From: Oscillospiraceae bacterium
Lineage (GTDB): Bacteria > Bacillota > Clostridia > Oscillospirales > CAG-272
DNA: 64,000 nt
Reading direction: 5' to 3'
Assembly (NCBI GenBank): GCA_015065385.1
Contig: SVQK01000056.1
Coordinates: 270,983-334,982, forward strand
How positions within the stretch are numbered: position 1 is the first letter of the stretch; each line of letters opens with the position of its first letter. Under the pieces are notes generated by a model. The model was not told the DNA's origin. It worked only from the letters and a program-made list of their open reading frames with translations, and searched no databases. Positions 1 through 49,298 of this stretch are shown piece by piece. The translations under genes and the position numbers were made by a program.

Positions 1-183
1 GAGCTGATCAAACTTCTGGGTTCGGGGGAGCCTATCTACGTTCCGGTGTACAGTGGTTCCCGGTGGACTTCCCGGAGGCGGATAGAATCCATCGAGTCGT
101 GCGGCGAGACCGAGTGCCAGTGCATCACGCTGGATTCCCCCGATGGATTGTATGTGACGAAGGATTTCATCGTCACGCATAAC
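1..183 (+). mobile_element. Intein, C-terminal portion only (N-terminal part lies upstream of the window)
   Basis: Translation of nt 1-186 is ELIKLLGSGEPIYVPVYSGSRWTSRRRIESIESCGETECQCITLDSPDGLYVTKDFIVTHN|S. The terminal His-Asn followed by a Ser nucleophile, and the preceding beta-rich block, resemble Hint blocks F/G. TerL ATPase sequence resumes right after it. Confidence 0.65.
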
Positions 184-1482
184 TCCTACGGATTGCTTCT
201 GACCTTTCTCCGGTACAAGAATGAGCCGGGTTTCACTGCTACGATATTCCGTCAGAACTACAATCAGATCTTCGCGCCCGGTGGTTTGTGGGATGAAGCC
301 GAGAAAATCTACGGGCGCATCCCCGGAGCCGAGAAAAAGACAATGGATGGCGCTTGGCAGTTTCGTGGGAAAGACGGGCGGATTCTTAGTAAGATCAAGT
401 TTGCGCACATCGAACGGGATGATGCTGTACATAAGTGGCAGGGCTCACAGATAGCCGAAATTGGCTGGGATGAGCTCACCCATTTTACAAAGGCAGAGTT
501 CTTTTATATGCTCTCCCGTAACCGTAGTACCTGCGGTGTGAAGCCCTTCGTCCGTGCGACTTGCAACCCGGACGCAAACTCATGGGTGGCGGAGTTCATC
601 GATTGGTGGATCGACCCGGATACCGGGTATCCCATCCAAGAACGAAGCGGGGTCAAGCGGTGGTTCATTCGTCGTGATGAACAGCTTTTCTGGGCCGACC
701 GGAAACAGGATTTGTGGGCGGAGTTTGATCTTCAAACCCCGGAGGAGAAGCAAGAGCCCAAGTCTGTCACGTTTATTGCGTCGTCCATCTATGACAACAA
801 GGAGCTGTTGCGGGTCAACCCGAGCTACCTTGCAAACTTGAAAGCCCTATCCGTCGTGGAGCGCGAACGGCTCCTGTACGGCAACTGGAAGATCAAACCC
901 TCCGCAGGGCTGTTCTTCAAACGGACGCAGCTCGGGTCCATACTCGAGGTTATCCCGGATGACATCCTTCAATGGGTGCGGTGCTGGGACTTAGCCGCGA
1001 CCGAGAAAGAGGAAAACGGCGATGCAGCTTACACGGCGGGCGTGCTGATCGGGAAAAGGAAGAACGGCAGATACATAATCGCGGACGTCATAAACAAGCA
1101 GATGAGTGCCGCGGATGTCCGGAAGACGATCTACCTGACAGCACAGGCAGACCGGGCGAAGTTCAAACGCATCCGGATCCGGTTACCTCAAGACCCGGGC
1201 CAAGCCGGGAAGGAACAGGCACAGTCCTATATAAAACTGCTCTCCGGTTTTGATGTGACCGCGGTTCCCGAGACCGGGAGCAAGGAGAGCCGGGCCGAGC
1301 CTATGGCGGCTCAATGGCAAGCCGGAAACTTCGACATCGTACACGCGGATTGGAATGAACCATACCTTGAACAGCTTGAGAATTTCCCCGAGTGGAAGTT
1401 TAAGGACATGGTGGACGCTTCGGCTAACGGCTTCGCGGAAGTCGAGCTGAAAGCGATGTTTAATATCGATACACTACTTTGA
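1..1482 (+). CDS. terL: Terminase large subunit, 5'-partial (runs off window start), interrupted by an intein
   Basis: Frame 1 is open from nt 1 and is the same frame as track ORF 46..1482. After the intein junction the sequence reads SYGLLLTF..., then Walker-B-like GWDELTHF, the ATCNPD coupling motif and acidic nuclease-like motifs (WDLAATE, DMVDASANG). It lies immediately upstream of the portal. Confidence 0.85.
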   Translation, partial: ELIKLLGSGEPIYVPVYSGSRWTSRRRIESIESCGETECQCITLDSPDGLYVTKDFIVTHNSYGLLLTFLRYKNEPGFTATIFRQNYNQIFAPGGLWDEAEKIYGRIPGAEKKTMDGAWQFRGKDGRILSKIKFAHIERDDAVHKWQGSQIAEIGWDELTHFTKAEFFYMLSRNRSTCGVKPFVRATCNPDANSWVAEFIDWWIDPDTGYPIQERSGVKRWFIRRDEQLFWADRKQDLWAEFDLQTPEEKQEPKSVTFIASSIYDNKELLRVNPSYLANLKALSVVERERLLYGNWKIKPSAGLFFKRTQLGSILEVIPDDILQWVRCWDLAATEKEENGDAAYTAGVLIGKRKNGRYIIADVINKQMSAADVRKTIYLTAQADRAKFKRIRIRLPQDPGQAGKEQAQSYIKLLSGFDVTAVPETGSKESRAEPMAAQWQAGNFDIVHADWNEPYLEQLENFPEWKFKDMVDASANGFAEVELKAMFNIDTLL

Positions 1483-4387: not shown

Positions 4388-4589
4388 TTTCATTTCTGGG
4401 GAAGCGTATGTTGAAGACTGTCCTACGGCCATTAAGATTTCCGTTGATTCCGAGGGCGGCATTCGCGCGGACCCGCTTCCCGAAGGGTACGATTGGTGTA
4501 AAAAACATCTTCGGTATGCGATTGGGGTTCTCCGACAAGCGCGTAAAATGGAGGATCCTCCTACCGAACGAACGATAATGTGGTATTGA
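4353..4589 (+). CDS. Hypothetical small protein (78 aa)
   Basis: ATG at 4353 preceded by AGGAGAGGTGG, overlapping the portal 3' end. A strong terminator follows. Confidence 0.5.
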   Translation: MVKVKNITKTPDFISGEAYVEDCPTAIKISVDSEGGIRADPLPEGYDWCKKHLRYAIGVLRQARKMEDPPTERTIMWY

Positions 4590-4608
4590 TATAGCAGATC
4601 TGACAATG

Positions 4609-4636
4609 AAAAAAGGACGGGGGCCCGTCCTTTTTT
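4609..4636 (+). terminator. Rho-independent terminator (A-tract / GC hairpin / T-tract, potentially bidirectional)
   Basis: aaaaaaGGACGGGggccCCGTCCtttttt. Confidence 0.7.
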
Positions 4637-4637
4637 C

Positions 4638-5243
4638 ATGCCTTCGGAGGACATTGTGGGAAAAGTCGATGAATATATAAAGCGGAGGAGAATCCGGCTT
4701 CTTTCCCGGAACGGAGAAACACCTTCATTCTCAGATCGAGTAACGGCTTTCAAGGCCCGTCGCGCAGCTCGGCTCGACGTACGGAATAAAGAACTTGAAA
4801 TGCTGAAAAATGGGTTGACTTTCTCCAAATATAATGGTAACATTGCAATGGATGAATTCGTGGAAGGCGACCATCCACGGGATGAGAACGGGCAATTCGC
4901 TAAAGCGAATAGCTCCGAGGCTTCAAGCGAGTCGGGAGCTGAAACGGTAAAACCGCAACCCACGACCCCATCTGCAAAAGAGATCCGGTCCCGTTTGATC
5001 GGGCAAAAAACGCAGGACGGGCAAACGGTAAAGTCGGTGAGCGACCACGCAGTACAAAGGGTTCAGGAACGGAAGATCGGTTTTGATACAATCGAGAATT
5101 TGTTCCAATCCGGTAACGTTCGGCCCGGACACACACCGAACACGATTTGCTATGAAACCGATAAGCACAGAGTTGTTTTCGACAAAAACAACGGCAAAAT
5201 AGTAACCGTGATGCACCGGGGCAATAGAGGAGGCAAGAAATAA
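4638..5243 (+). CDS. Effector protein with a C-terminal DUF4258-like (RelE/BECR-fold RNase toxin-like) domain
   Basis: The C-terminus VSDHAVQRVQERKIGFDTIENLF...HRVVFDKNNGKIVTVMH fits the DUF4258 signature (HAxxRxxERxI ... IVTV). The middle carries NIAMDEFVEGDHPRDENGQFAKAN, which is shared with the portal. The N-terminus has FKARRAARL, as in the effector paralogs. An alternative start is GTG 4656, 5 nt after GGAGG. Confidence 0.6.
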   Translation: MPSEDIVGKVDEYIKRRRIRLLSRNGETPSFSDRVTAFKARRAARLDVRNKELEMLKNGLTFSKYNGNIAMDEFVEGDHPRDENGQFAKANSSEASSESGAETVKPQPTTPSAKEIRSRLIGQKTQDGQTVKSVSDHAVQRVQERKIGFDTIENLFQSGNVRPGHTPNTICYETDKHRVVFDKNNGKIVTVMHRGNRGGKK

Positions 5244-5503
5244 TGGACACGAAGGGCTTTCTTGATCTGCTGAATCAAGAACAAAATGATTTCATCCTCG
5301 ATGAGTTTTCCATGACGCAGGATCAGCTCCTCGGCCTTTCCGATGAAGGCCTCGACGAGCTCTACGAAGAGCTGGCAGACATTGAGGTTGAGGAGACGAT
5401 GAAAGCCGAAGAAACGGGCGCAGCTCTTTCGGACAGAGGCCGGATTGCTTCTGAGATCGTCACTGTTTGGGGCAACGCCTACGCCGAGATAGACGAGGAG
5501 TGA
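5243..5503 (+). CDS. Acidic 86-aa protein, candidate immunity/antitoxin for the upstream toxin-like domain
   Basis: Start overlaps the upstream stop (TAATG). The protein is very acidic (DELYEELADIEVEETMKAEE) and is followed by a terminator. The immunity role is inferred from position only. Confidence 0.55.
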   Translation: MDTKGFLDLLNQEQNDFILDEFSMTQDQLLGLSDEGLDELYEELADIEVEETMKAEETGAALSDRGRIASEIVTVWGNAYAEIDEE

Positions 5504-5523
5504 ACCCGAAAACAAAATACCTG

Positions 5524-5547
5524 AAGGACGGATCCCCGTCCTTTTTT
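5524..5547 (+). terminator. Rho-independent terminator
   Basis: GGACGGatccCCGTCC followed by TTTTTT. Confidence 0.7.
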
Positions 5548-5597
5548 CGTGCCCATGTTTGAGAGCCGCGTAGGGGCTTATATGGAGGCGTTTTAAC

Positions 5598-6554
5598 GTG
5601 AACGAAAAGATACCCGCCCAACTGAAAAACGCGACTGACAAAGCCCCCACGAAGGTCAGAAGCCGCGTCCGGGCAAAAGGGACGCTCCTGTACCCGGATT
5701 CATCCGAACGGGAGTACGCTTCGCTGGCTTTGAAGCACGCCCGGATGTACGGCGACCTGTTAAAAGAATACCTGCCGGAGATCGAAACGATTCTCCGTGA
5801 AACCGCGAGGACGGATTCCAAGGATTACCACGATGATGCGAAAATCCTTGATTTCTCCGAGCGGTTTTCTCGTACCATCCGGAAGATGGAAAAAGAGCTG
5901 GCCGAAAAGCTGGACGATTTCGACACGGAGTACTTCATCAAGAAGGTGGCGAAACGGGCAAACGGGAGCAACACCCGCCAGTGGTTGCAGCTGATAAAGA
6001 AAACCTACGGGATCGATCTTGACGGTCACTACTACAACAAAGGAACGTGGGCGGATATGATCGACAGATGGGCCGCGGAAAACGTCGGCTATGTGAAGTC
6101 AATTCCGCAGGATTCTCTGGCTACACTTCGCCAGATCGTCCAGAACGGGTACTACGACGGCTGGGGGGTCATTAAGACCCGGAACGAGATCATGAAGGCT
6201 TTCGGGGTTTCCAAGAAAAAAGCAAAGATGCTGGCCGCGGATCAAATGGGTTCCTTGTGTGCGCAAATAACCCGGAAGAAGCAAACGGACGCCGGGTGCA
6301 AACGGTATCGATGGAAAGCCCGAAACGACAACCGTGTTCGGGATGCGCACAGGCAGTACAACGGGAAAATCTTCTCATGGGACAACCCGCCGCCCGCGTG
6401 GTACATGACCAAGACGAAGGGGAAGGTCTTCACCGGGAGGCATTGTCATCCCGGCGAGGATTACTGTTGCCGGTGCATAGCGATACCGATCTTCGATTCG
6501 GACACGCTTCAACTGCCCGTGAAGAGCGGATACGAGGAGACCGGACAAACGTGA
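5598..6554 (+). CDS. Head morphogenesis protein, SPP1 gp7 / Mu F family
   Basis: 318 aa with a GTG start. It carries the family-typical block RWKARNDNRVRDAHRQYNGKIFSWDNPP and sits in the expected position after the portal. Confidence 0.85.
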   Translation: MNEKIPAQLKNATDKAPTKVRSRVRAKGTLLYPDSSEREYASLALKHARMYGDLLKEYLPEIETILRETARTDSKDYHDDAKILDFSERFSRTIRKMEKELAEKLDDFDTEYFIKKVAKRANGSNTRQWLQLIKKTYGIDLDGHYYNKGTWADMIDRWAAENVGYVKSIPQDSLATLRQIVQNGYYDGWGVIKTRNEIMKAFGVSKKKAKMLAADQMGSLCAQITRKKQTDAGCKRYRWKARNDNRVRDAHRQYNGKIFSWDNPPPAWYMTKTKGKVFTGRHCHPGEDYCCRCIAIPIFDSDTLQLPVKSGYEETGQT

Positions 6555-6571
6555 GGAAGGGAGCAATTGGA

Positions 6572-7417
6572 ATGAATAAAGTACGCGCTTTCCAAGGGCG
6601 TCGATATAAGCGGCTCCTCGCAAGGATGGATGCCAACACTGACAAAGGAAAATGGATCACAACCGAAAACAATCACAAAGTCCATCTGAACGAGAACGGA
6701 CAACCAGATATGGGCAACCCTCACGTGATCGCTGCGATGGGTGGTAGCGAGTCCTCAGTACAGGTAAGTGATCTCAGTAAGCGGGTTGAGGGACTTAAGA
6801 AGATGAAAAAGACCGAACGGCAACAGGAGCTTGCGAGTATTCTCGGTGATATGCCGGTGGGTTCTCAGATTACAGTTAAGAACCCGGGGCTTCCTGATCA
6901 AGTCATAACGAAAAAGGACGCGGAAACCTTCGAGCTTAAGACCACGATGTTTGGTGCACCATCCGTTCACGATTCTTCACTCTTCGCATTGTCTCACGGT
7001 TTGTCTAATGATAAGAGCAATGCGTATTCGTTCGAAGGCTCCGGCACAATGCAATCTCAGGCGAAGGCGGAAAGTGGCGTTAATCCCAACGCTAAAACCC
7101 CCTCCAATGTATCATCTTCAAGTTCAAGTGGGGGTGGGTCTACAGTGCCCCCCGATGCAGATGCTCTTGCTAAGACAAAGGCTCAAAAAGCCGCTGAAAA
7201 AGCTAAGACTGCGGCCATGCTCAAAAAAGCACAAGCCGCGGTAGCTAAAAAAGAAAAGATCTCACAGATTGATAAGGAAATCGAGCAGCTGGAACACGAG
7301 ATGTATAAGGCCCAGCATTACGGGAATACCGAGATCGGGGATTGGGATCTGTCCCACGAACTTGAAATGAAAATCCATAATCTTGAGGAGCAGAAAAAGA
7401 AGCTCACAGGGAAGTAA
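6572..7417 (+). CDS. Effector-family paralog 1 (shared N-terminal module, Ser-rich linker, coiled-coil C-terminus)
   Basis: ATG 6572 after GAGGAAGGGAG. The track ORF start at 6257 overlaps muF and is rejected. The N-terminus is MNKVRAFQGRRYKRLLARMD...GKWITTENNHKVHLNENGQPDMGNPHVIAAMGG. The C-terminus is Lys/Ala/Glu-rich coiled coil. Confidence 0.6.
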   Translation: MNKVRAFQGRRYKRLLARMDANTDKGKWITTENNHKVHLNENGQPDMGNPHVIAAMGGSESSVQVSDLSKRVEGLKKMKKTERQQELASILGDMPVGSQITVKNPGLPDQVITKKDAETFELKTTMFGAPSVHDSSLFALSHGLSNDKSNAYSFEGSGTMQSQAKAESGVNPNAKTPSNVSSSSSSGGGSTVPPDADALAKTKAQKAAEKAKTAAMLKKAQAAVAKKEKISQIDKEIEQLEHEMYKAQHYGNTEIGDWDLSHELEMKIHNLEEQKKKLTGK

Positions 7418-7439
7418 AAGTTAAAGCGAGGCATTTTTG

Positions 7440-10400
7440 ATGAATAAAACGGATGCGTACCGTAACCGCCGGTATAAGCGGCTTCTCGCAAGAATGGATG
7501 AAGTGGATGGCCATTTCGACGACGAGGGGCATTGGGTCACAACCCACGAAACGAAACGGCACATACACATAAACGAGAACGGGGTTCCTGATAAGGGCAA
7601 CCCCTATATTATTGCCAAGATGACCGGGACGAAACCGAAACTCAGCGGCGAATACCGGAAAAAATCGCTGCAGGAGAGTTTCGGTAAAGGGAATACCGGT
7701 AAGGCAGTGCATTCGTTGAAGAGCCTTCCCGAAGGATCGACGATCAAGATGGCAAACGGAACGGAGTACACAAAGACCGGAAGCGGCTTTGTCAGTTCCA
7801 AGAGTAAAACGGGTGGTAAACAGACCCCGCAAGCTCTGGCGAAAATCCTTGATGGTCATACGAAGGCCGGTAAGAACTTCGAGGTCAATCCTTCCGACAT
7901 TGGCGGGGCTGTCGAAGCGGGGAAAAACACGGGAGCCCCGAAGCCCGGACAGGGTGCTGAGTCCGAGGCTCCGAGTGCTTCTACGTCAGAATCGGTGCCG
8001 GAAACCGCATCAGCATCGTCCCCGGAGATCGATGCGCTTAACACGGTAATCGATCAATGGGGCGCGGGCAATCAGGTCCCCGCAGTAACCACATTGCAAG
8101 CTCTCACGGGTTTAGAAGACGGGACGAAAATCTTAGTTGACGGGTTTACCTTTGAAAAGCAGTCTGAAATCAGCGCGCTTGGGGCAGGGAAGGTCACTTC
8201 CTTTAAGAACACGGACACGGGCGAGGTCTTTAGTAAGGGTACGTTTAAGGCAATCCTGAAAAGCTATGCAGAGGAAGGTCAGCACGATATAGAGGTGCAA
8301 GCGCCCGGTCAATCGACGCCCGCCTCGGCTGAGGCCGCACCTGCTCCGGATGAGGTGGCCCCGGTTGAAACGGCTTCGACTTCTCCTGAAGTAACCAAAT
8401 TCAACGACATTCTTTCAGGGTGGGCTGGCCACTACAGCGATGGGACACTTACAGAGGACGATATTGCCGCCGCAAATGCTTTGAAGGATGGCACGATTAT
8501 CTCCGTTAACGGAAAAGATACCTACAAAAAGGTTACCGAACACTCCATGTACGGCGACTATCCGTGGTTTGAAAACTTAGAAACCGGGAAATGGTCGAAT
8601 GTACCCGCGCTGAAAAAAATCGTGGGCGGGGATGACGTACAGGCTGTACAGGTGAAAGATCCCGCAAATGATACAACAGTTTCTGCGCCAGCTTCTGAAC
8701 AAGAGCCTACGCCGACGTCGAGTGCCGAGCCTTCTGCCGAGCAACCGAGTTCTTCTTCCGGTGGTAAGACGATGAAGGACCTGACAGAGTCCTTGAAAAA
8801 GTATCCCCCGACCATGGAGGGGGCGAATAAGTTCTGGAATGAAGTCAATAGCACCTTCGATAACGCCCCTGACGGAACTGAGATAACCTTTCCTGATGAA
8901 GACGATGGAAAATGGATCAAGGAAACCCACGGGAGCCTGACGCAATGGGTAAACCTCGCTTCCGGCGATACGATGGATAACAGTGAGATGTCGGCGGCTT
9001 TCTTGGATTCCGACTTTGGCAAGGATCTCGATAACATTTCTGCCGGAATAACCTATAAAGAACCTACCGGCGCGGGGACGCCGGGTTCAAGCTCGAGCGG
9101 TTCAAGTGGTTTAGCCTCGCAGGATTATTCGGGCCAAAAAGAAGCCCTTAGCGATCTGATCAAAAACGTGCCCGATGCGAGCATTGCCGCCTATGAAACG
9201 GTGTTGGATGAATTCCCAGAGGGCACCATCATCAAGGTTGGCGGAAAAACGTATGAAAAAATTCCGTCCGGGGATTGGGGTGATCCAGATACAGGGTTGC
9301 CGCTTGGCGAGTCTTGGGATGTGGGCTACGAGCTGAAGCACTATAACCCTCAACACACCTTAGACATTTCGATACCCGGAGAAAACACCGCCGCGTCTTC
9401 CACCGGCAATGCGAATACACCTACTACGAGTTCTGACCCGGCGCAGTATTCGGCGTCTCTTTCAGGGGTAAAAAGCGCTGTAGATAAACTGAAACAAGGG
9501 AAATTCGTCCATCCGGCAGAGTTCAAAAAGGCGTGTAAGTCAATGAAAGACGGCGATGGAATCGTCACGAACGGAAAAACCTATATCAAGGGTACAGATT
9601 CGTCCGGAAATCCGGTGTTCCACCCTTCTGATTCCCCACAGCACACTTACAGTTCTACCGGCATGGTGGACATCATGGCATACCAGATCGGTTTGCAAAA
9701 AGCCGGTCTCTCAAACGGGGTTTCGTTCAAATCCGGATCGGATCAATCCAGCTCAGGAAGTACAGCCGGTGCTTCACCCAGCACGGCAGCTCCCACGGCA
9801 ACACCGAGCGTGGCCGCAAAAGACACGCAGAAATCAATCAAAAATGCTAAGACCAAAGCCGCCGTCGCTTCGGCTCTGGACGCGCTTCCCGTGGGAACGA
9901 AGATCCACATGAAGAACCAAGGGGAAACCGTGTTCACAAAAACGGAGCACGGTTTCTCAAAAGAGTCTAAGTTCTGGGGCGGGACCATTCACACCCTTAC
10001 CGATGACGTGGTGAAATATGTTCACGGGAAGAATAAATACGCCGCGCCCTTTGCTATCGAAGATACTTCTGGCGGAACAACCGATTTCTCGGACGGTTCA
10101 AGCTATAAAGCCCCGGCGCATTCGTCTACCGCGTCTTTGCAAAGCCAGTCTTCCTCCTCCGCCTCGTCCGCTTCATCTTCCGCATCAAGCCCGAAACCGA
10201 GTGCTTGGAACGGGCTAAAAGCAAAAGTCCAACATGCCGCCGAAGCGTTCACCCAAGCCCGGAAGAACGCGGCCCATTGGGATAAAGGGGGCGGAATGGC
10301 AACCGATAAACTGCTGAGACCGGTTACAGGAGCAGTATGGAAAAAACTAACTGAGGGGCAGAAGAAGAGTCTGGTTGCCTATACCGGGAGCGCTTATGCG

Positions 10401-10925
10401 AGCATAAATGACGCATTGAGAAACGGAACCGGTAAACGAGCTGCAGACATAAACAACATGACAACGGCTATCGATCAGTGCGAAGCGCCCACCGATATAT
10501 GGCTTCAGAGAGGATGTTCGACATACGCATTGAGTAAGCTGTTCAACACCGATACGATGACCCTTGAAAAAGCGCGTTCAAAAGGATCCCAAGCTATTCT
10601 TGACCTTTTGTCCACCTCGGCAAACTACGGTCAGGATAAGGGTTTCATGTCATGCGGGTCTTCGAAAGGGAAGGGCTTTTCCTCTAACGATGTGATTTTG
10701 AACGTGTACTGTCCGAAAGGCACGAAGATGATGTATGCGGAACCGTTCTCCCACTATGGCGCGACAAGTGCCGGAGCTACGTGGAACGGCTCGTCTGGTA
10801 CAACTCATGTTTCAGGCGAACACGAAACAATCCTGCAAAGGGGGACAATGCTCCGTCCCACAAAGGTCACGGTGTCTAACGGTAAGATATACGTGGATGT
10901 AGACGTAATCGGTCAAAACTACTAA
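7440..10925 (+). CDS. Effector-family paralog 2: shared N-terminal module, about 7 repeated modules, and a C-terminal ADP-ribosyltransferase toxin domain
   Basis: The N-terminus MNKTDAYRNRRYKRLLARMD...HWVTTHETKRHIHINENGVPDKGNPYIIAKMTG is about 150 aa and highly similar to paralog 3. S/T/A/P-rich linkers separate the repeats. The ART motifs are at the C-terminus. Confidence 0.8.
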   Translation: MNKTDAYRNRRYKRLLARMDEVDGHFDDEGHWVTTHETKRHIHINENGVPDKGNPYIIAKMTGTKPKLSGEYRKKSLQESFGKGNTGKAVHSLKSLPEGSTIKMANGTEYTKTGSGFVSSKSKTGGKQTPQALAKILDGHTKAGKNFEVNPSDIGGAVEAGKNTGAPKPGQGAESEAPSASTSESVPETASASSPEIDALNTVIDQWGAGNQVPAVTTLQALTGLEDGTKILVDGFTFEKQSEISALGAGKVTSFKNTDTGEVFSKGTFKAILKSYAEEGQHDIEVQAPGQSTPASAEAAPAPDEVAPVETASTSPEVTKFNDILSGWAGHYSDGTLTEDDIAAANALKDGTIISVNGKDTYKKVTEHSMYGDYPWFENLETGKWSNVPALKKIVGGDDVQAVQVKDPANDTTVSAPASEQEPTPTSSAEPSAEQPSSSSGGKTMKDLTESLKKYPPTMEGANKFWNEVNSTFDNAPDGTEITFPDEDDGKWIKETHGSLTQWVNLASGDTMDNSEMSAAFLDSDFGKDLDNISAGITYKEPTGAGTPGSSSSGSSGLASQDYSGQKEALSDLIKNVPDASIAAYETVLDEFPEGTIIKVGGKTYEKIPSGDWGDPDTGLPLGESWDVGYELKHYNPQHTLDISIPGENTAASSTGNANTPTTSSDPAQYSASLSGVKSAVDKLKQGKFVHPAEFKKACKSMKDGDGIVTNGKTYIKGTDSSGNPVFHPSDSPQHTYSSTGMVDIMAYQIGLQKAGLSNGVSFKSGSDQSSSGSTAGASPSTAAPTATPSVAAKDTQKSIKNAKTKAAVASALDALPVGTKIHMKNQGETVFTKTEHGFSKESKFWGGTIHTLTDDVVKYVHGKNKYAAPFAIEDTSGGTTDFSDGSSYKAPAHSSTASLQSQSSSSASSASSSASSPKPSAWNGLKAKVQHAAEAFTQARKNAAHWDKGGGMATDKLLRPVTGAVWKKLTEGQKKSLVAYTGSAYASINDALRNGTGKRAADINNMTTAIDQCEAPTDIWLQRGCSTYALSKLFNTDTMTLEKARSKGSQAILDLLSTSANYGQDKGFMSCGSSKGKGFSSNDVILNVYCPKGTKMMYAEPFSHYGATSAGATWNGSSGTTHVSGEHETILQRGTMLRPTKVTVSNGKIYVDVDVIGQNY
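10310..10922 (+). other. ADP-ribosyltransferase domain (R-S-ExE class, C3/VIP2/SpvB-like)
   Basis: YTGSAYASINDALRNG; catalytic Arg in DIWLQRG (Arg codon 10509-10511); STS-like FMSCGSS; ExE in GEHETILQRG (10818-10826). Confidence 0.8.
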
Positions 10926-10952
10926 CCTCGAAATTAAACCGGTTATTACTGC

Positions 10953-10981
10953 TTGACTTTTTTCATGCTTTATGGTAATAT
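10953..10981 (+). promoter_or_regulatory. Sigma-70-type promoter with extended -10, internal to the late region
   Basis: TTGACT (10953-10958), 17-nt spacer, TGgTAATAT (-10 at 10976-10981). It lies 28 nt after the ART gene stop. Confidence 0.6.
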
Positions 10982-11012
10982 GGGTTTACCTAATATGAGG
11001 GGGTAACATTTC

Positions 11013-11267
11013 ATGGCGAAAGAAGGAAAGATGAAGCCTCGTGATTGGGATGAGGGATTCGGTGATAACGCTGAACACGGCGCGGAAGAAACGCCTTGCA
11101 CCGATTGCGTTTTTCGTCGAATTGTCACAAGCGCAGATGGTAGGGTGATAGATACCGGAAAAGGATCTACCTGCAAGGCCTATCCCGAGCTCAAACCGCT
11201 CGAGGTGATGATGTATGGGGCCGAGTGCCCGAAATATCAGAAGGATAAACACGAAAAGAACCTCTGA
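11013..11267 (+). CDS. Small Cys-containing protein (84 aa), unknown function
   Basis: ATG after GAGGGGG. Cys pattern PCTDC...C...ECPKY. It is the first gene of the promoter-to-terminator cassette that also carries the ARH gene. Confidence 0.55.
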   Translation: MAKEGKMKPRDWDEGFGDNAEHGAEETPCTDCVFRRIVTSADGRVIDTGKGSTCKAYPELKPLEVMMYGAECPKYQKDKHEKNL

Positions 11268-11312
11268 GGCAAAGAGGATACCGAAAATGAACCCAAACAG
11301 GGAGGCAAACGC

Positions 11313-12233
11313 ATGATAGGAGCCATCATCGGTGACATCGTCGGCTCGGTCTACGAGTTCGACAATCATCGATCAAAGATTTTTCCGCTTTTTGATTCTC
11401 GCTGTGCGCTGACAGACGACAGCATAATGACGCTGGCCATCGCAAGAGCGCTCACGATCTACGGGCAGCAGGGGACGTATGAAAACCTGCAATCTGAGAC
11501 GATCCGGCAGATGCAGAGGGTCGGTCGATGCTACCCCGATTGCGGTTGGGGCGGGCGTTTCGGAAGGTGGATCTTCTCAGACGATCCGAAGCCATACAAC
11601 AGCTTCGGGAATGGCGCGGCTATGCGGGTCAGCGCGATTGTCGCCGCGGCTCCAAACCTCGAAACGGCGAAGCTGTGGACGAAGCTGGTAACCGAGATTT
11701 CGCACAACCACCCGGAAGGGATCAAAGGCGCACTTGCGACGGTTGAGCTTGCGTGGATAGCAAAAGAGGCCAGAAAACGCACGAATCCAAAATGCAAAGA
11801 TCGCATTTTCAAAGCCGCTTTGAAATACTACCCGGAAAAAGACTTCGCCGGAGATTTCAACCTTGATGCGATCCGCCCCAAATACCGATTCAACGAAACC
11901 TGCCAAGAGACGGTTCCGCAAGCCATCGAAGCGTTCCTTGAATCGAGAGATTTTGAGGACGCTATTCGAAATGCGATCTCAATCGGCGGGGACAGCGACA
12001 CGTTAGCCGCAATTACAGGGACTATCGCCGAGGCCTTCTACGGGGTGAAGCAGGAGCATAAAGCAAAAGCGCTCAAATACTTCGACAGCCTCCAATACGG
12101 AATCTACAGTGAGTTTTCAGCTATGTACAACGATCTGCCCGTATTCGGAGAGCTGTCCGGAGAAATCGCATTCCGAACAACCGAAGACGGATCCATCGGC
12201 GGGATTTCTACGATGGGAGACGTCATTGGGTAA
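11313..12233 (+). CDS. ADP-ribosylglycohydrolase (DraG/ARH family)
   Basis: GAIIGDIVGSVYEF, TDDSIMTLAIARAL, GNGAAMRVSAI, HNHPEGIKGA and GGDSDTLAAITGTIAEAFYG are the hallmark di-metal ARH motifs. Confidence 0.9.
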   Translation: MIGAIIGDIVGSVYEFDNHRSKIFPLFDSRCALTDDSIMTLAIARALTIYGQQGTYENLQSETIRQMQRVGRCYPDCGWGGRFGRWIFSDDPKPYNSFGNGAAMRVSAIVAAAPNLETAKLWTKLVTEISHNHPEGIKGALATVELAWIAKEARKRTNPKCKDRIFKAALKYYPEKDFAGDFNLDAIRPKYRFNETCQETVPQAIEAFLESRDFEDAIRNAISIGGDSDTLAAITGTIAEAFYGVKQEHKAKALKYFDSLQYGIYSEFSAMYNDLPVFGELSGEIAFRTTEDGSIGGISTMGDVIG

Positions 12234-12252
12234 TCCCGCGAACTGAATACCG

Positions 12253-12277
12253 AAGACGCAGAAATGCGTCTTTTCTT
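12253..12277 (+). terminator. Rho-independent terminator closing the ARH cassette
   Basis: AAGACGCAgaaaTGCGTCTT followed by a T-rich tail. Confidence 0.65.
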
Positions 12278-12286
12278 ATTTCCCCG

Positions 12287-13972
12287 TTGAAAGGAGGGGT
12301 CGGCATAAAAGGCAACAACATAAGTCGTTTCAAACAGCGACGCGCTGAACGTCTAATACAAAGAGCGTTTAATGCGGATGCCCGTTTTGACGAGGACAAG
12401 GGAAAATGGGTGACGACCCACGAAAAGAAGCGTCGAATCCACATAAACGAAAACGGAATCCCGGATAAAGGGAACCCCTTTGTCATAGCCAAGATGACCG
12501 GGTCTAAGCCCAAGGTCAGCACTGGCTACAAAAAGAAGAATCTTCACGATCTTCTTGTAAAGGGCAAATCCGACAAAGCTGTAAAAGCTCTGAAAGCCTT
12601 GGAAGAAGGTTCCACTATCACGCTGGAAAACGGCACACAGTACACGAAGACGGGGAGCGGCTTTGTCAGCTCGAAGGGAAAAACTGGCGGCAAACAAACC
12701 CCGCAAGCCATAGCGAAGATCCTCCATGGTCACTCCGGAGGCGGGAAGGACTTTACGGTTGGTGATCCCAAACCCGATGCAGTTCCCGAGGCAAAAGCGC
12801 CTAAAACGTCAACCGTCCCAACCTACCCGAAGACATACAGCAAGGGTCAGCTTGGCGCGTCCCATAGTTCTCATATGGGAGACGATCCGGTAGACATTCC
12901 GAAAGGTCCGCCTAAAACCTATAAATCCGACTCCGGCCACGAATTCGTGGACGCGGGTAATATTCTATCAAGCGTCAAATCAACCGATACGACGAAAGAC
13001 ATCATCGAGAAGCAGGGATTCAGCGGTTTGCCTCGACGGGTATCAAAAGAGGAATTTCAAAAGATTGCAAAACAGAGTGGTTTCGTTTCGAAGCGAACAT
13101 ATAGCGCGGCCTCTCAGGAGCTCGCAGACGAATATCGAAAACAGCTCTACGAAGGGGACTTTTTCGTGGACTGCACCGTAGGCGGTGCACAATACGGGCA
13201 AGGAATGTATTGTGCCGCCGATTACACCGGCAACGGATACAACGCGGGCATCGACGAAGAGATGAAGCACTACCAAAAATTGAATGTCGCGCGGCAAGCA
13301 GATAACGCTTTCATCTTAGGGGCTTCAACCGAAGATCTGAACAAGGCCATAGACGAGTGTAAGGCCGCGGGTAAGTACAGCTGGAACGGAATGGGTTACA
13401 AGCACATGACCCCTGCCGAGCATGAGGCGTTTAAGAAGTTTGTAACGCATCAGAAGCTCAGCCCAAAAGAAGAAGAGGCCATGGCAAAGCACGGCGGTTT
13501 TTCGGATGTTCAGTTCGTGCTGTCCACTGATGTCGGGTGGAGCAACTATGGAACGGTTTCCGTAGGAAGCACTAAGAGCGCTACCAAGAACAAGTTCCTC
13601 TCGACATATAAGGGGTACAAAAAGACCGAAGTGGTCACGTTGGACCCGAGCGCGAAGATTATTAGTTTCAATGCTCTAAAGGCGAAATACAAGGCCTATA
13701 AAGGTACGAAACCGAAAGATCTGGGTGCCTTCGCCGCGGCTATGGGCTACGATGCGATCAACGCCTACGGCCATGGTAAATCCGGGTCCTACACCGTTAT
13801 TCTCAACCGGACAAAATGTGTATTTATGGATCGGCCTATCAATGGCGACTCGGTAGATGAGCCGAAGGAATCCCGTATCAAGTTCATCCCCGGCAAGCAT
13901 GGCCGGTTCCACGCATATCGGGACGGTCAATATCTGGGGTGGGTGGACACCTACGTCGGCGGTCAGAACTGA
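12287..13972 (+). CDS. Effector-family paralog 3: shared N-terminal module plus a putative PARP/ART-like C-terminal domain
   Basis: The N-terminus RFKQRRAERL...GKWVTTHEKKRRIHINENGIPDKGNPFVIAKMTG...TGSGFVSSKGKTGGKQTPQAIAKIL parallels paralog 2. The C-terminus has YGQGMYCAAD (compare PARP FGKGIYFAD) and TEVVTLDPSAKI (compare NEYIVYD). The start codon is uncertain: TTG 12287 has no RBS, while in-frame ATA 12305 lies 7 nt after AGGAGG. Confidence 0.7.
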   Translation: MKGGVGIKGNNISRFKQRRAERLIQRAFNADARFDEDKGKWVTTHEKKRRIHINENGIPDKGNPFVIAKMTGSKPKVSTGYKKKNLHDLLVKGKSDKAVKALKALEEGSTITLENGTQYTKTGSGFVSSKGKTGGKQTPQAIAKILHGHSGGGKDFTVGDPKPDAVPEAKAPKTSTVPTYPKTYSKGQLGASHSSHMGDDPVDIPKGPPKTYKSDSGHEFVDAGNILSSVKSTDTTKDIIEKQGFSGLPRRVSKEEFQKIAKQSGFVSKRTYSAASQELADEYRKQLYEGDFFVDCTVGGAQYGQGMYCAADYTGNGYNAGIDEEMKHYQKLNVARQADNAFILGASTEDLNKAIDECKAAGKYSWNGMGYKHMTPAEHEAFKKFVTHQKLSPKEEEAMAKHGGFSDVQFVLSTDVGWSNYGTVSVGSTKSATKNKFLSTYKGYKKTEVVTLDPSAKIISFNALKAKYKAYKGTKPKDLGAFAAAMGYDAINAYGHGKSGSYTVILNRTKCVFMDRPINGDSVDEPKESRIKFIPGKHGRFHAYRDGQYLGWVDTYVGGQN

Positions 13973-14003
13973 TAGAATCGCCTCTTCCGATGAAAAATAA
14001 AAT

Positions 14004-14023
14004 GCGCGGAAACGCGCTTTTTT
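14004..14023 (+). terminator. Rho-independent terminator
   Basis: GCGCGgaaaCGCGC followed by TTTTTT. Confidence 0.65.
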
Positions 14024-14050
14024 AGTTCCTCACGATAGGAGGCGTTTCCG

Positions 14051-14218
14051 TTGAAAGAATACATTCGTGTTTTCATTCGTTTCAAAGAAGGGAGAACCGT
14101 GTGCATCTGCATGAGGGACAACCCGAAATGCAAGAAGCACTGCATCCCAGAACTGGTAGAGCGGGACAAGATGAGAGATTGGCAAGAGGCCTTCAAGGTC
14201 AATAAATACGGAAAGTAA
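14051..14218 (+). CDS. Possible small Cys-rich protein (55 aa, TTG start)
   Basis: AGGAGG at 14037-14042, then 8 nt, then TTG 14051. Translation is LKEYIRVFIRFKEGRTVCICMRDNPKCKKHCIPELVERDKMRDWQEAFKVNKYGK. It is below the track size cutoff. Confidence 0.3.
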   Translation: MKEYIRVFIRFKEGRTVCICMRDNPKCKKHCIPELVERDKMRDWQEAFKVNKYGK

Positions 14219-14321
14219 AGCGGGGTATATCGCATATGAAACGCGTCGTAAAATCGGTTCACGATCCGCCCATCGAAAGCTATTATTTTGACGGCAAAGA
14301 AAGAGAAGGGAGGTGGTACGG

Positions 14322-14651
14322 ATGCCGGAGAAAGAAATGAGCGTCATTGAAACCATCTGCCAGCAGATGATTAAGTCTGCGGGGGATGTCATCGCGCTCG
14401 AGCAGGTTATATCTCGGCTGGAAGACCACAATAACGATAAGGTGTTGGAGCTGTTTGAACACCTGCAAATCTCCAATCTGGAAGCCCTGCAAACCTTGAC
14501 AGTCGCCTTAACGGGTGAAATGCTGGAATCCCGGAAGACCGAAAACGATGATTCGGATGATGGCGGCGTCTTTGCGCCGGGGGAGCTCGATTGGAAAAAG
14601 AAAGCCGAGGTGATCGGCCACGGTGAAACGGAGGAAGAAGCCGATGAATAA
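14322..14651 (+). CDS. Acidic hypothetical protein (about 110 aa)
   Basis: ATG 14322 after GAAGGGAGG. Its stop overlaps the scaffold gene start. Confidence 0.6.
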   Translation: MPEKEMSVIETICQQMIKSAGDVIALEQVISRLEDHNNDKVLELFEHLQISNLEALQTLTVALTGEMLESRKTENDDSDDGGVFAPGELDWKKKAEVIGHGETEEEADE

Positions 14652-16485
14652 GACCATGCCTAAGCTGGTTCACGTCACACGGCTTGACAGTTTCCCCGTA
14701 ACCCGTGCAACGTACACGGATGAAGGTTATCTGTCCGACCGACCGATTCTGACGTCAACCGGAATCTTCGAGTACAAAAACAAAGATGGCTCGATCAGAC
14801 GGGAGCTGAGGCTCCCGGAGGAAGTTTTTGACCCTGAAAGTCTTGAATCCTATAAAGGGAAGCCCATCGTGATAACACACGATGCCGGGCTTATTAACCG
14901 TGACAATGTTCAGGAAAATCAGATAGGGACGATCCTCAGCGCCGGTGAGCGCGACGGGGATGATGTTCGGGCTGACATCATGATTCATGATACAAAGGCC
15001 CTGAAAAACTGTCGATTCAAGGAACTGTCGCTCGGTTACAACCTCGACCTTGAAGAGGAACCGGGAGAATGGGAAGGGCAGAAATATGATGCCATCCAGC
15101 GGAACATCCGCGTGAACCATCTTGCCGTTGTCAGGGAGGCAAGGGCGGGAGATCAGGCGCGGCTGAACATAGATAGCCGTTCCGATAACACAATCTTAAC
15201 AGGAGGACATAGGACTATGGCCAAGAAGAAGACCCGCCGTAAATACAACAACGACGGCATCCTCAGCCCTGAACAGCTGCAGGAAGCAATCGCAAAGTAT
15301 AAGGCGGAACAGGCGGCGCTTGCCGCTGAAAATCAGGACGAAGATCCTGATGAAGAGGCCGAGGAACTCGCAAAGACCGAGGTTGTAAACCCCGAGGCCG
15401 ATGTGCAGAAGAATGAGCTGAACAAGGATACGGACAAGCCGGTTCCTGCTCCGCAGAATACCGCGCCGCAGGTGCTCCCCCCGAAGAAGCCCGTGGCTCC
15501 GAGCATCCCGCTCCCGAGTCAGGACAGGCCCATTGAGGAGAAGCTCGACGCGGTGAAGCACAGACGCGATCTCCGCGACGAGAAGGGTGACCCCAAGGAC
15601 CTTAATGAGGCCATGGAAAGCATCGCTGAATACGACGAGGAGCACGATTATTATCGTGACATCATCGACACCCTTCTCGCTGAACGTGACTTCGAAAAGG
15701 GTAAGAAGGCCGACTCTGCGCAGGAGCCCATCCCCGACACCGAGACCGCTGAAATCGGTGACAAGGGCAAGGAGAAAGACGAGGACTGTGTGGACAACAA
15801 GCTCGACTCCGAAGACGCTGACACCCCCTTCACCGATGAAGAAGAGGTAAAGGAAGACGACGAGGAAGACACCGACCCGTTTGGTGACGAGGACTTCGCT
15901 GACGAAGATCTCACCGAAAACGAGGGTGAGGAAGAGGATCCGGCTTTTGCCGATTCTGACCTCGGCGACCCGGACTCCGCTGATCCCGATAACGAGGACG
16001 ACGATGACGAAGAGGCACTTCCCGACTACGATCTCACCGATCCCGACATCGACGATGCAGATGAGGAGGAGGAATCCTACCCGCGTCTGAATCAGGATTC
16101 TATCGACCGGGCTGTTCGGAAAGAAGTGCAAAGACGGCTCGCCATCGCCAAGGTAGGCCAGCGGCTCAACATGGACGGTCTGGAAACCATGAGCCTCCGC
16201 AAAGCGAAGCGCATGGTCATTAAGAAGGTTTATCCTTCTGTCCGGCTCGACGGTAAGAGTGACGCCTACATCAACGGTATGTACAACTGCTGCGTAAAAG
16301 AGCTGAAGAAACACCCCCGGAAGGATACCGCCTACCAGAAGCGGCAGATGTTCAATAAGGTGTTCAACAAGGACTCTCAGGACTTCGATAACACCGATTC
16401 CGCGGCAACCGCGCGTGACAAGATGATCGAACGGCAGCTGGATCGCAAGCCGGAACGTCATAGCGTTCGTGCGGAAAAGAAATAA
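14644..16485 (+). CDS. Scaffold / prohead-processing protein (resembles DUF2213) with a long acidic C-terminal half
   Basis: ATG 14644 after GGAGGAAG. The block ELSLGYNLDLEEEPGEWEGQKYDAIQRNIRVNHLAVVREARAG matches my recollection of DUF2213. It sits between the portal/MuF genes and the capsid gene. The C-terminal half has about 200 aa of D/E-rich low complexity. Confidence 0.7.
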   Translation: MNKTMPKLVHVTRLDSFPVTRATYTDEGYLSDRPILTSTGIFEYKNKDGSIRRELRLPEEVFDPESLESYKGKPIVITHDAGLINRDNVQENQIGTILSAGERDGDDVRADIMIHDTKALKNCRFKELSLGYNLDLEEEPGEWEGQKYDAIQRNIRVNHLAVVREARAGDQARLNIDSRSDNTILTGGHRTMAKKKTRRKYNNDGILSPEQLQEAIAKYKAEQAALAAENQDEDPDEEAEELAKTEVVNPEADVQKNELNKDTDKPVPAPQNTAPQVLPPKKPVAPSIPLPSQDRPIEEKLDAVKHRRDLRDEKGDPKDLNEAMESIAEYDEEHDYYRDIIDTLLAERDFEKGKKADSAQEPIPDTETAEIGDKGKEKDEDCVDNKLDSEDADTPFTDEEEVKEDDEEDTDPFGDEDFADEDLTENEGEEEDPAFADSDLGDPDSADPDNEDDDDEEALPDYDLTDPDIDDADEEEESYPRLNQDSIDRAVRKEVQRRLAIAKVGQRLNMDGLETMSLRKAKRMVIKKVYPSVRLDGKSDAYINGMYNCCVKELKKHPRKDTAYQKRQMFNKVFNKDSQDFDNTDSAATARDKMIERQLDRKPERHSVRAEKK

Positions 16486-40899: not shown

Positions 40900-40907
40900 G
40901 GGGGACC

Positions 40908-40925
40908 GGGGGTCGCAACCCCCGA
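40908..40925 (+). promoter_or_regulatory. GC hairpin just 3' of VR (candidate DGR target-recognition hairpin)
   Basis: CGGGGGT cgca ACCCCCG: 7-bp stem with a 4-nt loop, 21 nt after the VR end. Confidence 0.55.
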
Positions 40926-41061
40926 GAGCTTAAAGCTCAGGCAAAACAAACAGCAAAGCAAACACAACAAACGCAACGGAAGTCCATATCCGTCCGCGCA
41001 CAGCGGTCGGATATGGGATTTCCCGGGATTCCCTGCGCAGTGGAGCGGTGCTTGTATCCTT

Positions 41062-41199
41062 CGCGTCAACTCGAACACCGGGACCTGCGTCCTGTACGTC
41101 GGCGGTAACTACAACGCGAACGCGAACTATGGGTTCTTCTACTTCAACGCCAACAACTCGGCTTCGAACACCAACGCCAACATCGGCTCCCGCCACCTT
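41062..41199 (+). repeat. DGR template repeat (TR)
   Basis: Non-coding copy of the VR, rich in AAC triplets (translates as RVNSNTGTCVLYVGGNYNANANYGFFYFNANNSASNTNANIGSRHL). It lies 119 nt upstream of the RT gene. Confidence 0.9.
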
Positions 41200-41318
41200 G
41201 TTCATACGGTTTGTGATATGCGCGCAGGGCTTTCCGTACCACTTGGTAAAAATATCGCCGCAAGGAGAGTGTTTAGTAGGACTATCTCGAAAAACGCTCA
41301 GGCGAACAAGGAGAAAAG

Positions 41319-49145: not shown

Positions 49146-49298
49146 GTGAGAAACCGGCAGAAGCAACGGGCGCTTCGGCGTTCCGGGAAGAAGCGGGATT
49201 CCCCGATAGATTTCCGGAACGCGGAGCATTACCCGGATCCTGTTCCGCACGACGCGGTTGACAGAATAATCAGAAAGGAGAAAAAGAAGGTCGTATGA
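49146..49298 (+). CDS. Small basic protein (50 aa) of a type common in Firmicutes mobile elements
   Basis: GTG 49146. Translation is VRNRQKQRALRRSGKKRDSPIDFRNAEHYPDPVPHDAVDRIIRKEKKKVV. Its stop overlaps the next ATG (ATGA). Confidence 0.4.
   Translation: MRNRQKQRALRRSGKKRDSPIDFRNAEHYPDPVPHDAVDRIIRKEKKKVV

Follow-up and report, generated by a model that had tools for sequence, protein, structure and literature searches.

Analysis of a 64,000-nt stretch of contig SVQK01000056.1 from an Oscillospiraceae bacterium (GenBank assembly GCA_015065385.1; the stretch is termed the window hereafter) revealed a locus within the head-morphogenesis genes of a tailed phage that encodes an ADP-ribosyltransferase (ART), an 84-residue four-cysteine protein (p84) and an ADP-ribosylglycohydrolase (ARH). 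We propose that this locus is a likely case of a phage head-module toxin/antidote system of the Bxa-BAH-Bsi kind, carried by a Firmicute myovirus that is probably a prophage. Judged by sequence comparison, Bxa-BAH-Bsi is the closest known system, rather than Tre1/Tri1 or DraT/DraG, and the locus appears to be a Firmicute version of the Bacteroides-phage toxin-antidote arrangement that was shown experimentally in 2024, with a different small partner. The domain identities, the catalytic residues, the gene order and the conservation of the promoter, the terminator and p84 are evident in the sequences themselves. Phage head-module toxins, including the MuF toxins, Bxa and Apk2, have been recognised only recently, and their injection, their targets and the timing of their antidotes are poorly understood. 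The coordinates of all features are listed in Table 1.

Table 1. Features of the head-module locus and its neighbours (positions in the window)
Feature	Position	Strand	Evidence
Terminase	46-1482		
Portal, C-terminal NUDIX (aa 621-732)	1532-4387	+	PF06381, PF00293
201-aa DUF4258 protein (p201)	4638-5243		
Stand-alone MuF (SPP1 gp7-like) minor head protein, 318 aa, no toxin domain	5598-6554	+	PF04233 5.7e-16; phrog_324 1.9e-54
First N-module paralogue (p281), 281 aa, coiled-coil C-terminus	6572-7417	+	
Carrier-ART protein, 1162 aa from TTG (1161 aa from ATG 7440)	7437-10925	+	open reading frame; called 1161 aa in public assemblies
N-terminal module (N-module), ~75 aa, RRxxRLL...GxWxTTxE...H[IL]NENGxPDxGNP	7437-7661	+	alignment A4
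ART catalytic domain, aa 941-1162	10257-10922	+	PF03496, alignment A1
ART key residue R1025	10509-10511	+	
ART key residue S1072	10650-10652	+	
ART key residue E1128	10818-10820	+	
ART key residue E1130	10824-10826	+	
Sigma-A/sigma-70-type promoter, extended -10, TTGACT-17-TGgTAATAT	10953-10981	+	consensus scan, positional conservation
p84, 84-aa four-Cys protein	11013-11267	+	
ARH, 306 aa	11313-12233	+	PF03747 2.5e-29; phrog_6572 5.5e-45
Intrinsic terminator, GAAGACGCA-GAAA-TGCGTCTTT then TCTTATTT	12252-12281	+	9-bp stem-loop 12252-12273, dG -11.9 kcal/mol
Third N-module paralogue (p561), up to 561 aa, C-terminal domain of unknown function	12287-13972	+	

The candidate toxin consists of an N-terminal module, about seven globular repeats with S/A/P/T-rich linkers between them (low-complexity segments at aa 155-204, 276-322, 407-453, 533-573, 645-678, 759-802 and 885-930) and a C-terminal ART domain; its gene ends with a TAA codon at 10923-10925. 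The ART domain matches PF03496 over aa 968-1153 (E=1.7e-17, 63.9 bits against a cutoff of 23.4) and contains the motifs WLQRG (aa 1022-1026), FMSCGSS (1070-1076) and GEHETILQRG (1127-1136). Alignment A1, which covers 16 diverged relatives, revealed that R1025, S1072, E1128 and E1130 are invariant. In LQRG, R1025 aligns with the Arg of the Vip2 YRW motif, and E1128-H-E1130 aligns with the Q-x-E of C3stau. The equivalent of the S-T-S motif reads S1072-C-G, in agreement with a family pattern of S-[C/A/T]-G, and only its first Ser is kept (YMSTS in Vip2 versus FMSCG here); Lmo0066 reads S-T-T at this position. An earlier note on this DNA, made from the window alone, had described an R/S-x-S/ExE domain, and of this signature the Arg and the ExE stand in all relatives, but the literal S-x-S does not.

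Profile search with A1 against the PDB ranked Lmo0066 first (8za7_B, 5e-25), followed by C3stau, Vip2, Certhrax and CdtA, with iota and C2 toxins also among the matches. The domain further matches phrog_16625, 'Bxa ADP-ribosyl transferase' (1.1e-21), shows a weak match to the Alt-like phrog_802 (3.5e-7) and shares 33.8% identity with the MuF-ART of Bacteroides phage Versailles, whereas no MuF domain was detected in the window ART protein with Pfam or PHROG. The earlier assignment of ExE to the arginine-type configuration agrees well with this homology to Bxa, Vip2, iota, C2 and Lmo0066, of which Bxa has been shown to modify arginine (PMC11699363). The domain thus appears to have the R-S-ExE configuration, and its predicted arginine specificity follows from the motifs and from the homologue Bxa.

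The ARH scores 103.3 bits against PF03747 (cutoff 26.2). Comparison with 14 homologues, two of them from Bacteroidales phages, showed that E15, D35, D36, T40, the GNGAAMR segment, H131-N-H133 and G225-G-D227-x-D229-T230 are invariant, leaving the binuclear metal-site and catalytic residues intact. It is 40.7% identical to the ARH beside the Bxa-like ART of phage Versailles. Its best PDB match is Lmo0067, crystallised in complex with the ART Lmo0066, so that the best matches of the window ART and ARH are two chains of one ART-ARH complex (8za7). On these grounds the enzyme is predicted to remove the ADP-ribose that the ART adds. Since the protein fails both equivalog models, scoring 45 bits against the 337 required for DraG (TIGR02662) and 26.4 against 490 for Tri1 (NF041672), its kinship to either is only at the superfamily level. 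Moreover, the ARH begins at the conserved G-x-x-x-G-D motif (residues 3-8) and has no Tri1-like N-terminal extension. The label 'DraG-like' given earlier is therefore correct for the superfamily and no further, and of the proposed Tre1/Tri1-type pairing what survives is the logic of a toxin beside the hydrolase that reverses it, not the Tri1 identity.

The ARH clade is common in Firmicute genomes and phages, mostly without an ART nearby, and the relatives come largely from metagenome-assembled genomes (MAGs) and viromes of gut and rumen. Many solitary phage ARHs may play a general anti-defence role. At this locus, an anti-defence enzyme unrelated to the ART was rejected as the main reading on account of the conserved ART-p84-ARH order and of a p84-ARH fusion described below; metabolic regulation of the DraT/DraG type was rejected as well, given the failed equivalog model and the wrong context. 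Members of this ARH clade also form the N-terminus of proteins of ~805 aa, with 540 aa C-terminal to the ARH, in many viral contigs and in genomes of Bacilli (Bacillus sp. RC, Robertmurraya, Merdibacter); these proteins (L014, L015, L017, L112, L119, L131 and others) have neither ART nor p84 nearby.

Between the two enzymes lies p84, in which C29, C32, C54, K61, P62 and C72 are invariant. It belongs to no Pfam, PHROG, NCBIfam or PADLOC family and has no name in any source; a PADLOC search likewise gave no defence-system match for the ART, p84, the ARH, p561 or p201. Exhaustive profile search showed that the p84 family comprises 458 clusters at 50% identity, nearly all of them stand-alone proteins of 65-100 aa.

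To place p84 in context, viral loci were sampled via the ART domain, yielding 42 non-redundant ARTs with at least 1.5 kb of downstream sequence. A same-strand p84 follows the ART in 31 of these 42, accompanied by a same-strand ARH in 18 and without ARH in 13, which makes it the most constant partner of this ART family. The remaining ARTs are followed by a convergent Bsi-like gene and an opposite-strand ARH (5/42), by an opposite-strand ARH alone (3/42), or by neither (3/42); the last three are all second or third ART copies, with p84 elsewhere in the locus. An ARH without p84 or a Bsi-like gene thus occurs in only three of the 42 loci, and p84 and a Bsi-like gene never occur together (0/42). 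Here Bsi-like denotes a homologue of the 107-aa gene beside the ARH of phage Versailles, whose orthology to Bsi is deduced from size and position. Using this protein and a 108-aa Porphyromonas protein as tblastn queries, no Bsi-like gene was detected in the window or in any p84-bearing locus, and matches were confined to loci without p84. Bsi-like genes fill the antidote slot in the Bacteroidales-type loci.

Two relatives (L096, L097) have a MuF-ART, then p84, then the scaffold gene, without ARH. In a third (L276 2218-7053, Logan SRR31374172), a portal-ART protein of 1228 aa is followed by a 350-aa p84-ARH fusion (P0087), with TTGACA-17-TGtTATAAT ahead of its gene and a terminator behind it. 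p84 is also fused to a NUDIX domain (P0081), to an alarmone-hydrolase-like HD_4 domain (P0101, L273 2331-3645), in which case the ART-fold enzyme KptA/Tpt1 is encoded next to it among queuosine/TGT genes, and to an HNHPSG-motif domain (P0106, L280 581-1603), 16 nt past an ART.

Because of the downstream position, the exclusion of Bsi-like genes, the loci that have p84 without ARH and the p84-ARH fusion, p84 appears to sit in the slot of the immunity gene for this ART family, to which the ARH is often added. We suggest that p84 is a non-enzymatic, ART-binding antidote, probably zinc-binding and probably the main antidote of the system. The earlier view of the 84-aa Cys protein as a passenger does not fit its presence beside 31 of 42 ARTs, its exclusion of Bsi-like genes and its fusion to ARH in one relative. 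p84 would then stand for a new and unnamed family, common in Firmicute phages, that fills the antidote slot of Vip2/Bxa-type ARTs, and would be a compact candidate protein inhibitor of arginine-specific ARTs.

Two further arrangements were observed. One locus (L105 3479-8762) resembles a polymorphic-toxin array, in which a MuF gene is followed by three tandem ARTs, one of them with an N-module, and two p84 genes, with no ARH. The other, in a Lactimicrobium sp. MAG (L095 4226-7051, GCA_036453465.1), carries a Macro gene, a vWA-like gene, p84 and an ARH with no ART visible. The contig has ordinary bacterial neighbours (ABC transporter) and stops just past the ARH gene, and the group may represent an orphan anti-ART island.

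The p84 and ARH genes are preceded by a promoter close to the sigma-A consensus, in which -35 TTGACT (10953-10958) and -10 TAATAT (10976-10981) are separated by a 17-nt spacer with an extended -10 TG at 10973-10974. The -35 element starts 28 nt past the ART stop codon, and the predicted transcription start lies near 10988. All parts of the cassette as first described, namely this promoter, the 84-aa Cys reading frame, the ARH and the terminator, were found where the earlier note had placed them. Its comparison of the promoter with two others at 46069 and 47050 holds only in part: both exist (TTGACT-17-TATAAT without TG, and TTGACT-17-TGcTAATAT, respectively), but the likeness lies merely in nearing the sigma-A consensus.

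Taken as a single sequence, the promoter match is at chance level. The scan found 8 sites in 4000-16000 compared with 8.3 +/- 3.1 in shuffles, and TTGACT-17-TGgTAAYAT recurs at 3779 and 4815 within a repeated coding motif of the portal and the DUF4258 protein. These observations would allow the promoter and terminator to be chance matches in a region that is merely part of the late operon, a reading that we consider highly improbable in view of the comparative data. Relatives were gathered via the ARH, and the ART, p84, ARH, MuF and portal genes were mapped on them. The order ART, p84, ARH is kept in the clade that has the portal-NUDIX and MuF genes of the window, whereas the intergenic DNA cannot be aligned. 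Under a strict rule (-35 with at least 5/6 matches, spacer of 16-18 nt, TAnnnT with at least 4/6), a promoter lies within the ~360-nt ART-to-ARH interval in 12 of 14 related loci, against a background rate of 0.295 per kb for that strand in these loci, at which about 0.1 would be expected per locus. A thirteenth locus (L007, TTGCAT-17-TGtTATAAT) narrowly fails the rule. Full-consensus examples are TTGACA-17-TGtTACGAT in the L023 group and the L276 promoter given above; the interval promoter is also present in L094, L096 and L276, while one relative (L038) has a promoter directly before the ARH and another (L069) has one before p84 and a second before the ARH. Altogether, at least nine lineages whose flanking sequences are unrelated have independent near-consensus promoters in this interval, and the head module contains no second strong intergenic match besides the window promoter. 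Moreover, a hairpin with a T-run lies within 60 nt past the ARH stop in 10 of 15 loci.

The positional conservation of the promoter in diverged relatives, together with the terminators after the ARH, indicates that the cassette is very probably a separate transcription unit with its own promoter and terminator in this phage clade, which lends the autonomy proposed in the earlier note a strong comparative basis. In most other lineages of the ART family p84 is translationally coupled to the toxin without a promoter, and in most lineages with a MuF-ART it begins 3-30 nt past the ART stop, likewise without one; autonomy of the cassette is thus a trait that belongs to this phage clade rather than to the system. 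As no terminator was found between the ART stop and the -35 element in the window, late read-through would also feed the cassette. Only about 5-25 nt separate the cassette terminator from the third N-module paralogue downstream, and hence p561 and the downstream late genes would need read-through or another promoter. The conserved promoter-terminator unit offers a direct handle on antidote timing, be it early, lysogenic or late.

A palindrome upstream of the -35 element, AAACCGGTTA (10936-10945), was considered as an operator and rejected, its 2 matches versus 1.09 expected being not above chance. By eye only, A/T-rich GAAAT(n)ATTTC-like elements were seen upstream of the -35 in several relatives, and tRNA-like sequences directly 3' of the cassette terminator after the ARH in L023, L026, L029 and L034, and after the p84 terminator in L096. 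An Rfam search of 10000-14600 (E <= 0.1) gave no hit, nor did a tRNA scan over the full window.

The N-terminal module of the ART protein has 14 invariant positions in alignment A4 and is common to two further proteins of the window, encoded on either side of the toxin-cassette region (p281 and p561). Elsewhere it is rare, following MuF or portal genes in only eight viral contigs. We suggest that it targets the protein to the head or acts as a carrier. The same ART is found in relatives at the C-terminus of a portal-NUDIX protein (L010, L029, L033, L276), on a NUDIX-like segment after MuF (L007, L008), or fused to MuF itself (L096, L097). Such swapping of one ART among virion-internal carriers, namely portal, MuF and the new N-terminal carrier, supports packaging and delivery together with the DNA. 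As the same ART is covalently fused to portal or MuF in relatives, the window protein is most likely packaged in the capsid via its N-module. Packaging and delivery were proposed earlier for MuF- and portal-fusion toxins (PMC9503650, PMC5576092).

The third paralogue, p561, has a C-terminal domain without Pfam, PHROG or NCBIfam match. This domain is a recurrent cargo, being fused to portal-NUDIX in L008 and L016 and located after MuF in L023. At the position where the paralogues begin, p561 has no canonical start codon. There is a strong GGAGGGG Shine-Dalgarno sequence at 12293-12299 with an in-frame ATA behind it at 12305; the sole upstream start, TTG 12287, lacks a Shine-Dalgarno sequence and is placed 6 nt past the T-run of the terminator, and public gene calls start at GTG 12410, within the conserved module.

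Bxa, from a Bacteroides stercoris prophage, is an arginine-specific, bactericidal head-module ART neutralised by an adjacent ARH (BAH), which acts enzymatically and loses its activity upon mutation of E15, and by the small toxin-binding protein Bsi (Alexei et al., J Biol Chem 2024, PMC11699363, in which Brown et al. 2021 is cited for the Bxa system). The window shares with it a homologous R-S-ExE ART in a (pro)phage head-morphogenesis module, here between the portal/MuF and scaffold/capsid genes; an adjacent homologous ARH with the catalytic Glu at position 15, the identity having been measured against the Versailles ARH; a second small, putatively non-enzymatic partner gene; and antidote genes transcribed separately from the toxin, as predicted for the window. 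The ARH units of phage Versailles and of Porphyromonas phage005 are encoded on the strand opposite to the toxin, that of phage005 in an integrase-regulator operon. Since the ARH is on the opposite strand there and has its own promoter here, separate antidote transcription is a theme common to the Bacteroidales phages and the window. The two systems differ in several respects. The window ART is carried by the N-module, or by the portal in relatives, with MuF as a separate gene; its partner p84 has no detectable similarity to Bsi-like proteins; its cassette is co-directional with its own promoter and terminator, compared to a convergent opposite-strand unit; and its host belongs to the Firmicutes instead of the Bacteroidota.

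Apk2-Tis1-Aph1, a MuF toxin that is a (p)ppApp synthetase with structural and enzymatic immunity (PMC10083569), offers a functional parallel. There, too, a stoichiometric blocker is combined with a product-reversing hydrolase, roles that p84 and the ARH would play here; the blocker is always present and the hydrolase variable, and the Aph1 hydrolase family is widespread outside the toxin context, just as was observed here for p84 and the ARH. However, Apk2 synthesises an alarmone instead of transferring ADP-ribose, and the proteins are unrelated. In Tre1-Tri1 of the Serratia proteamaculans type VI secretion system and in Lmo0066-Lmo0067 (8za7), an ART is likewise countered by an ARH-family protein, and the p84-ARH fusion of L276 repeats the layout of Tri1, an N-terminal binder plus hydrolase. 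By contrast, binder and hydrolase are separate genes in the window, and delivery would rely on phage head proteins rather than on a type VI or type VII secretion system; literature searches found no functional paper on Lmo0066/67.

ARTs tied to virion-internal head proteins, with presumed DNA co-delivery, are also known from T4 Alt, from MuF/portal-fused 'polyvalent' ARTs (Iyer et al. 2017, PMC5512222; PMC9503650) and from EFV of the E. faecalis V583 prophage (PMC5576092). This group also resembles the window in the fusion of NUDIX to the portal and in the location of the ART between portal and capsid genes; T4 Alt differs in having no dedicated ARH or inhibitor cassette. The survey by Iyer et al. 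(2022, PMC9503650) gives ART-ARG pairs solely as a rare toxin-antitoxin type of Aeromonas phages; it does not describe the p84 family and contains no zinc-ribbon, Zn-ribbon or ZnR term. DraT-DraG is similar as a pair of arginine-acting ART and ARH, as predicted for the window, yet the window ARH is no DraG ortholog, there is no nitrogenase context, and the setting is phage conflict instead of metabolic regulation.

These comparisons allow us to propose a working model, which predicts the enzymatic activities, the arginine specificity, the p84-ART binding, the packaging and the expression timing. A long beads-on-a-string protein from the head-morphogenesis genes would carry an arginine-type (R-S-ExE) mono-ADP-ribosyltransferase at its C-terminus, be taken into the capsid via the N-module, and then be delivered with the DNA or released at lysis. 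p84 would bind and block the ART, in the role of Bsi or of the Tri1 N-terminal extension, and the ARH would strip ADP-ribose off proteins already modified, in the role of BAH; together they would neutralise the toxin in the producing or the receiving cell. The p84-ARH unit lies co-directionally in the late operon, and with its own promoter and no terminator after the toxin gene, the antidotes could be made both independently and by read-through. Host RNA polymerase would express them without the need for late transcription, whether the genome has just entered the cell or resides in a lysogen, and read-through would add to this when the toxin is made.

Several observations weigh against this model. 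The S-T-S motif of the ART is degenerate (S-C-G). Genome contigs scanned with the ARH alignment had an ART near the ARH in 0 of 80 loci, indicating that ART linkage is not general for this ARH. A natural nonsense allele, W86* (TGG>TGA, window 11570 G>A), together with P189H, interrupts the ARH at an otherwise invariant Trp in two assemblies from two sources (JGI 3300023687 and ENA ERZ27247018; L268 1438 and L269 1372), with p84 and the ART intact, suggesting that the ARH is dispensable in at least some populations. The predicted structure of p84 is of moderate confidence (pLDDT, the predicted local distance difference test score, 69.7) and has no fold match. The fusions of p84 to HD_4, NUDIX and HNHPSG-motif domains, and its location beside Macro and ARH genes without an ART, suggest that its role may be wider than plugging one active site. 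RS09440, a small open reading frame in the Bxa locus, did not neutralise the toxin (PMC11699363), so that position alone is no proof of immunity for p84. Lastly, no integrase was seen in the inspected parts of the contig.

Some of these points feed an alternative in which p84 is not an inhibitor, but a zinc-ribbon regulator, an ART-fold chaperone or packaging adaptor, or an ADP-ribose- or substrate-binding recruiter of hydrolases, leaving the ARH as the sole antidote. Small four-Cys proteins are often nucleic-acid binders, four kinds of C-terminal domain (ARH, NUDIX, HD_4 and the HNHPSG-motif domain) occur in fusions with p84, its HD_4 fusion lies next to KptA in a tRNA-modification neighbourhood, and the failure of RS09440 to protect points the same way. 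This alternative seems doubtful to us, because p84 and Bsi-like genes strictly exclude each other, the 13 ART loci with p84 and no ARH would have no antidote, p84 is translationally coupled directly after the toxin, and the p84-ARH fusion mirrors the binder-plus-hydrolase layout of Tri1. The opposite extension is a tentative idea of similar standing: p84 might found a new widespread zinc-ribbon-like class that binds ART-fold enzymes, the Firmicute-phage counterpart of the Bsi/Tri1 plug, used alone or fused to hydrolases (ARH, NUDIX, HD), with the prophage-expressed p84-ARH unit as portable immunity against virion-delivered ARTs of related phages. If true, head-packaged ARTs and their cassettes would form a phage-versus-phage or lysogen kin-discrimination system.

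Two further readings concern the time at which the cassette acts. The ART might be injected with the DNA to aid takeover, as T4 Alt does, whereupon early p84 and ARH switch it off and reset its targets. The host-type promoter would be usable at once by unmodified host RNA polymerase, the fusions to portal and MuF imply virion delivery, the weak Alt-like match is in line with such a role, and a first-line function in takeover has been put forward for phage ARTs packaged in the head (PMC9503650). We nevertheless regard this timer as possible rather than probable, since the coupling of p84 to the ART without a promoter in most lineages is a classic producer-protection arrangement and Bxa is lethal to bacteria without its antidotes; the timer and the toxin/antidote model are not mutually exclusive. 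Alternatively, the cassette could be a moron expressed from the prophage that guards lysogens against ARTs of superinfecting phages or lysing neighbours. A promoter and a terminator around a small accessory unit in a late operon are typical moron architecture, the element is probably a prophage, the phage005 ARH sits with integrase and regulator, the Lactimicrobium contig with Macro, p84 and ARH but no ART in view resembles an orphan immunity island, and kin protection or superinfection immunity was proposed for MuF toxins by Jamet et al. (PMC5576092). Against it, no integrase that would confirm a temperate lifestyle was found in the inspected parts of the contig, and the ARH nonsense variant suggests weak selection on the hydrolase; we hold this reading, too, to be less probable than the toxin/antidote model. 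An ART aimed mainly at the animal host, as Bxa is at epithelial myosin II, with a cassette that limits self-damage before release, is unlikely. The homology to Bxa, the dual behaviour of Bxa and the gut and rumen origin of most relatives would fit; however, neither a secretion signal nor a translocation component is present, relatives have the ART attached to proteins inside the virion, and nothing in the sequence addresses eukaryotic targets.

Regarding the phage itself, the window has the gene layout of a tailed phage. The region described here is followed by genes for scaffold, cement and major capsid proteins and by tail genes of the E217-like myovirus type; a large fibre gene, a reverse transcriptase gene and a region of early or replication genes come farther on. 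No match to 5500-14500 was found among cultured phage genomes by megablast, so there is no close cultured phage at the DNA level. Near base-for-base copies of the locus occur on several metagenome contigs, including ENA ERZ27247006 (82 kb) and JGI 3300021326. The element is probably a prophage of a spore-forming Firmicute, because identical ARH, portal and p84 proteins are also found on a contig of the 0.2-1 Mb class and because host-like pfk and spoIIAA/spoIIAB/sigF-type genes, with pfk on the opposite strand, lie at one end of the 82-kb contig (L087 15091-17668). These genes at the contig end are either host flank or phage-borne sporulation genes.

Several features of the window beyond the cassette deserve mention. 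The portal has a further tail of ~170 aa besides its NUDIX domain, and it shares with the 201-aa DUF4258 protein a peptide motif, GNIxMDEFVExDHPRDExGxF (around aa 765-800 of the portal), which may be a processing or targeting signal. A complete diversity-generating retroelement spans 34915-42398; its variable repeat (40750-40887) is located 3'-terminally in the gene for the 1994-aa fibre, the template repeat lies at 41062-41199, 14 of the 15 mismatches between the two repeats fall on template adenines, and the reverse transcriptase (PF00078) is encoded at 41319-42398. The phage early region contains a LuxS-family open reading frame (62661-63122). Moreover, a 347-aa protein encoded at 49295-50338 joins an XRE-type helix-turn-helix, sigma-70 region 4 and the C-terminal domain of the RNA polymerase alpha subunit (alpha-CTD), an unusual architecture for a transcription factor. 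ARTs of phage T4 modify the alpha-CTD, which makes this protein notable beside an ART locus.

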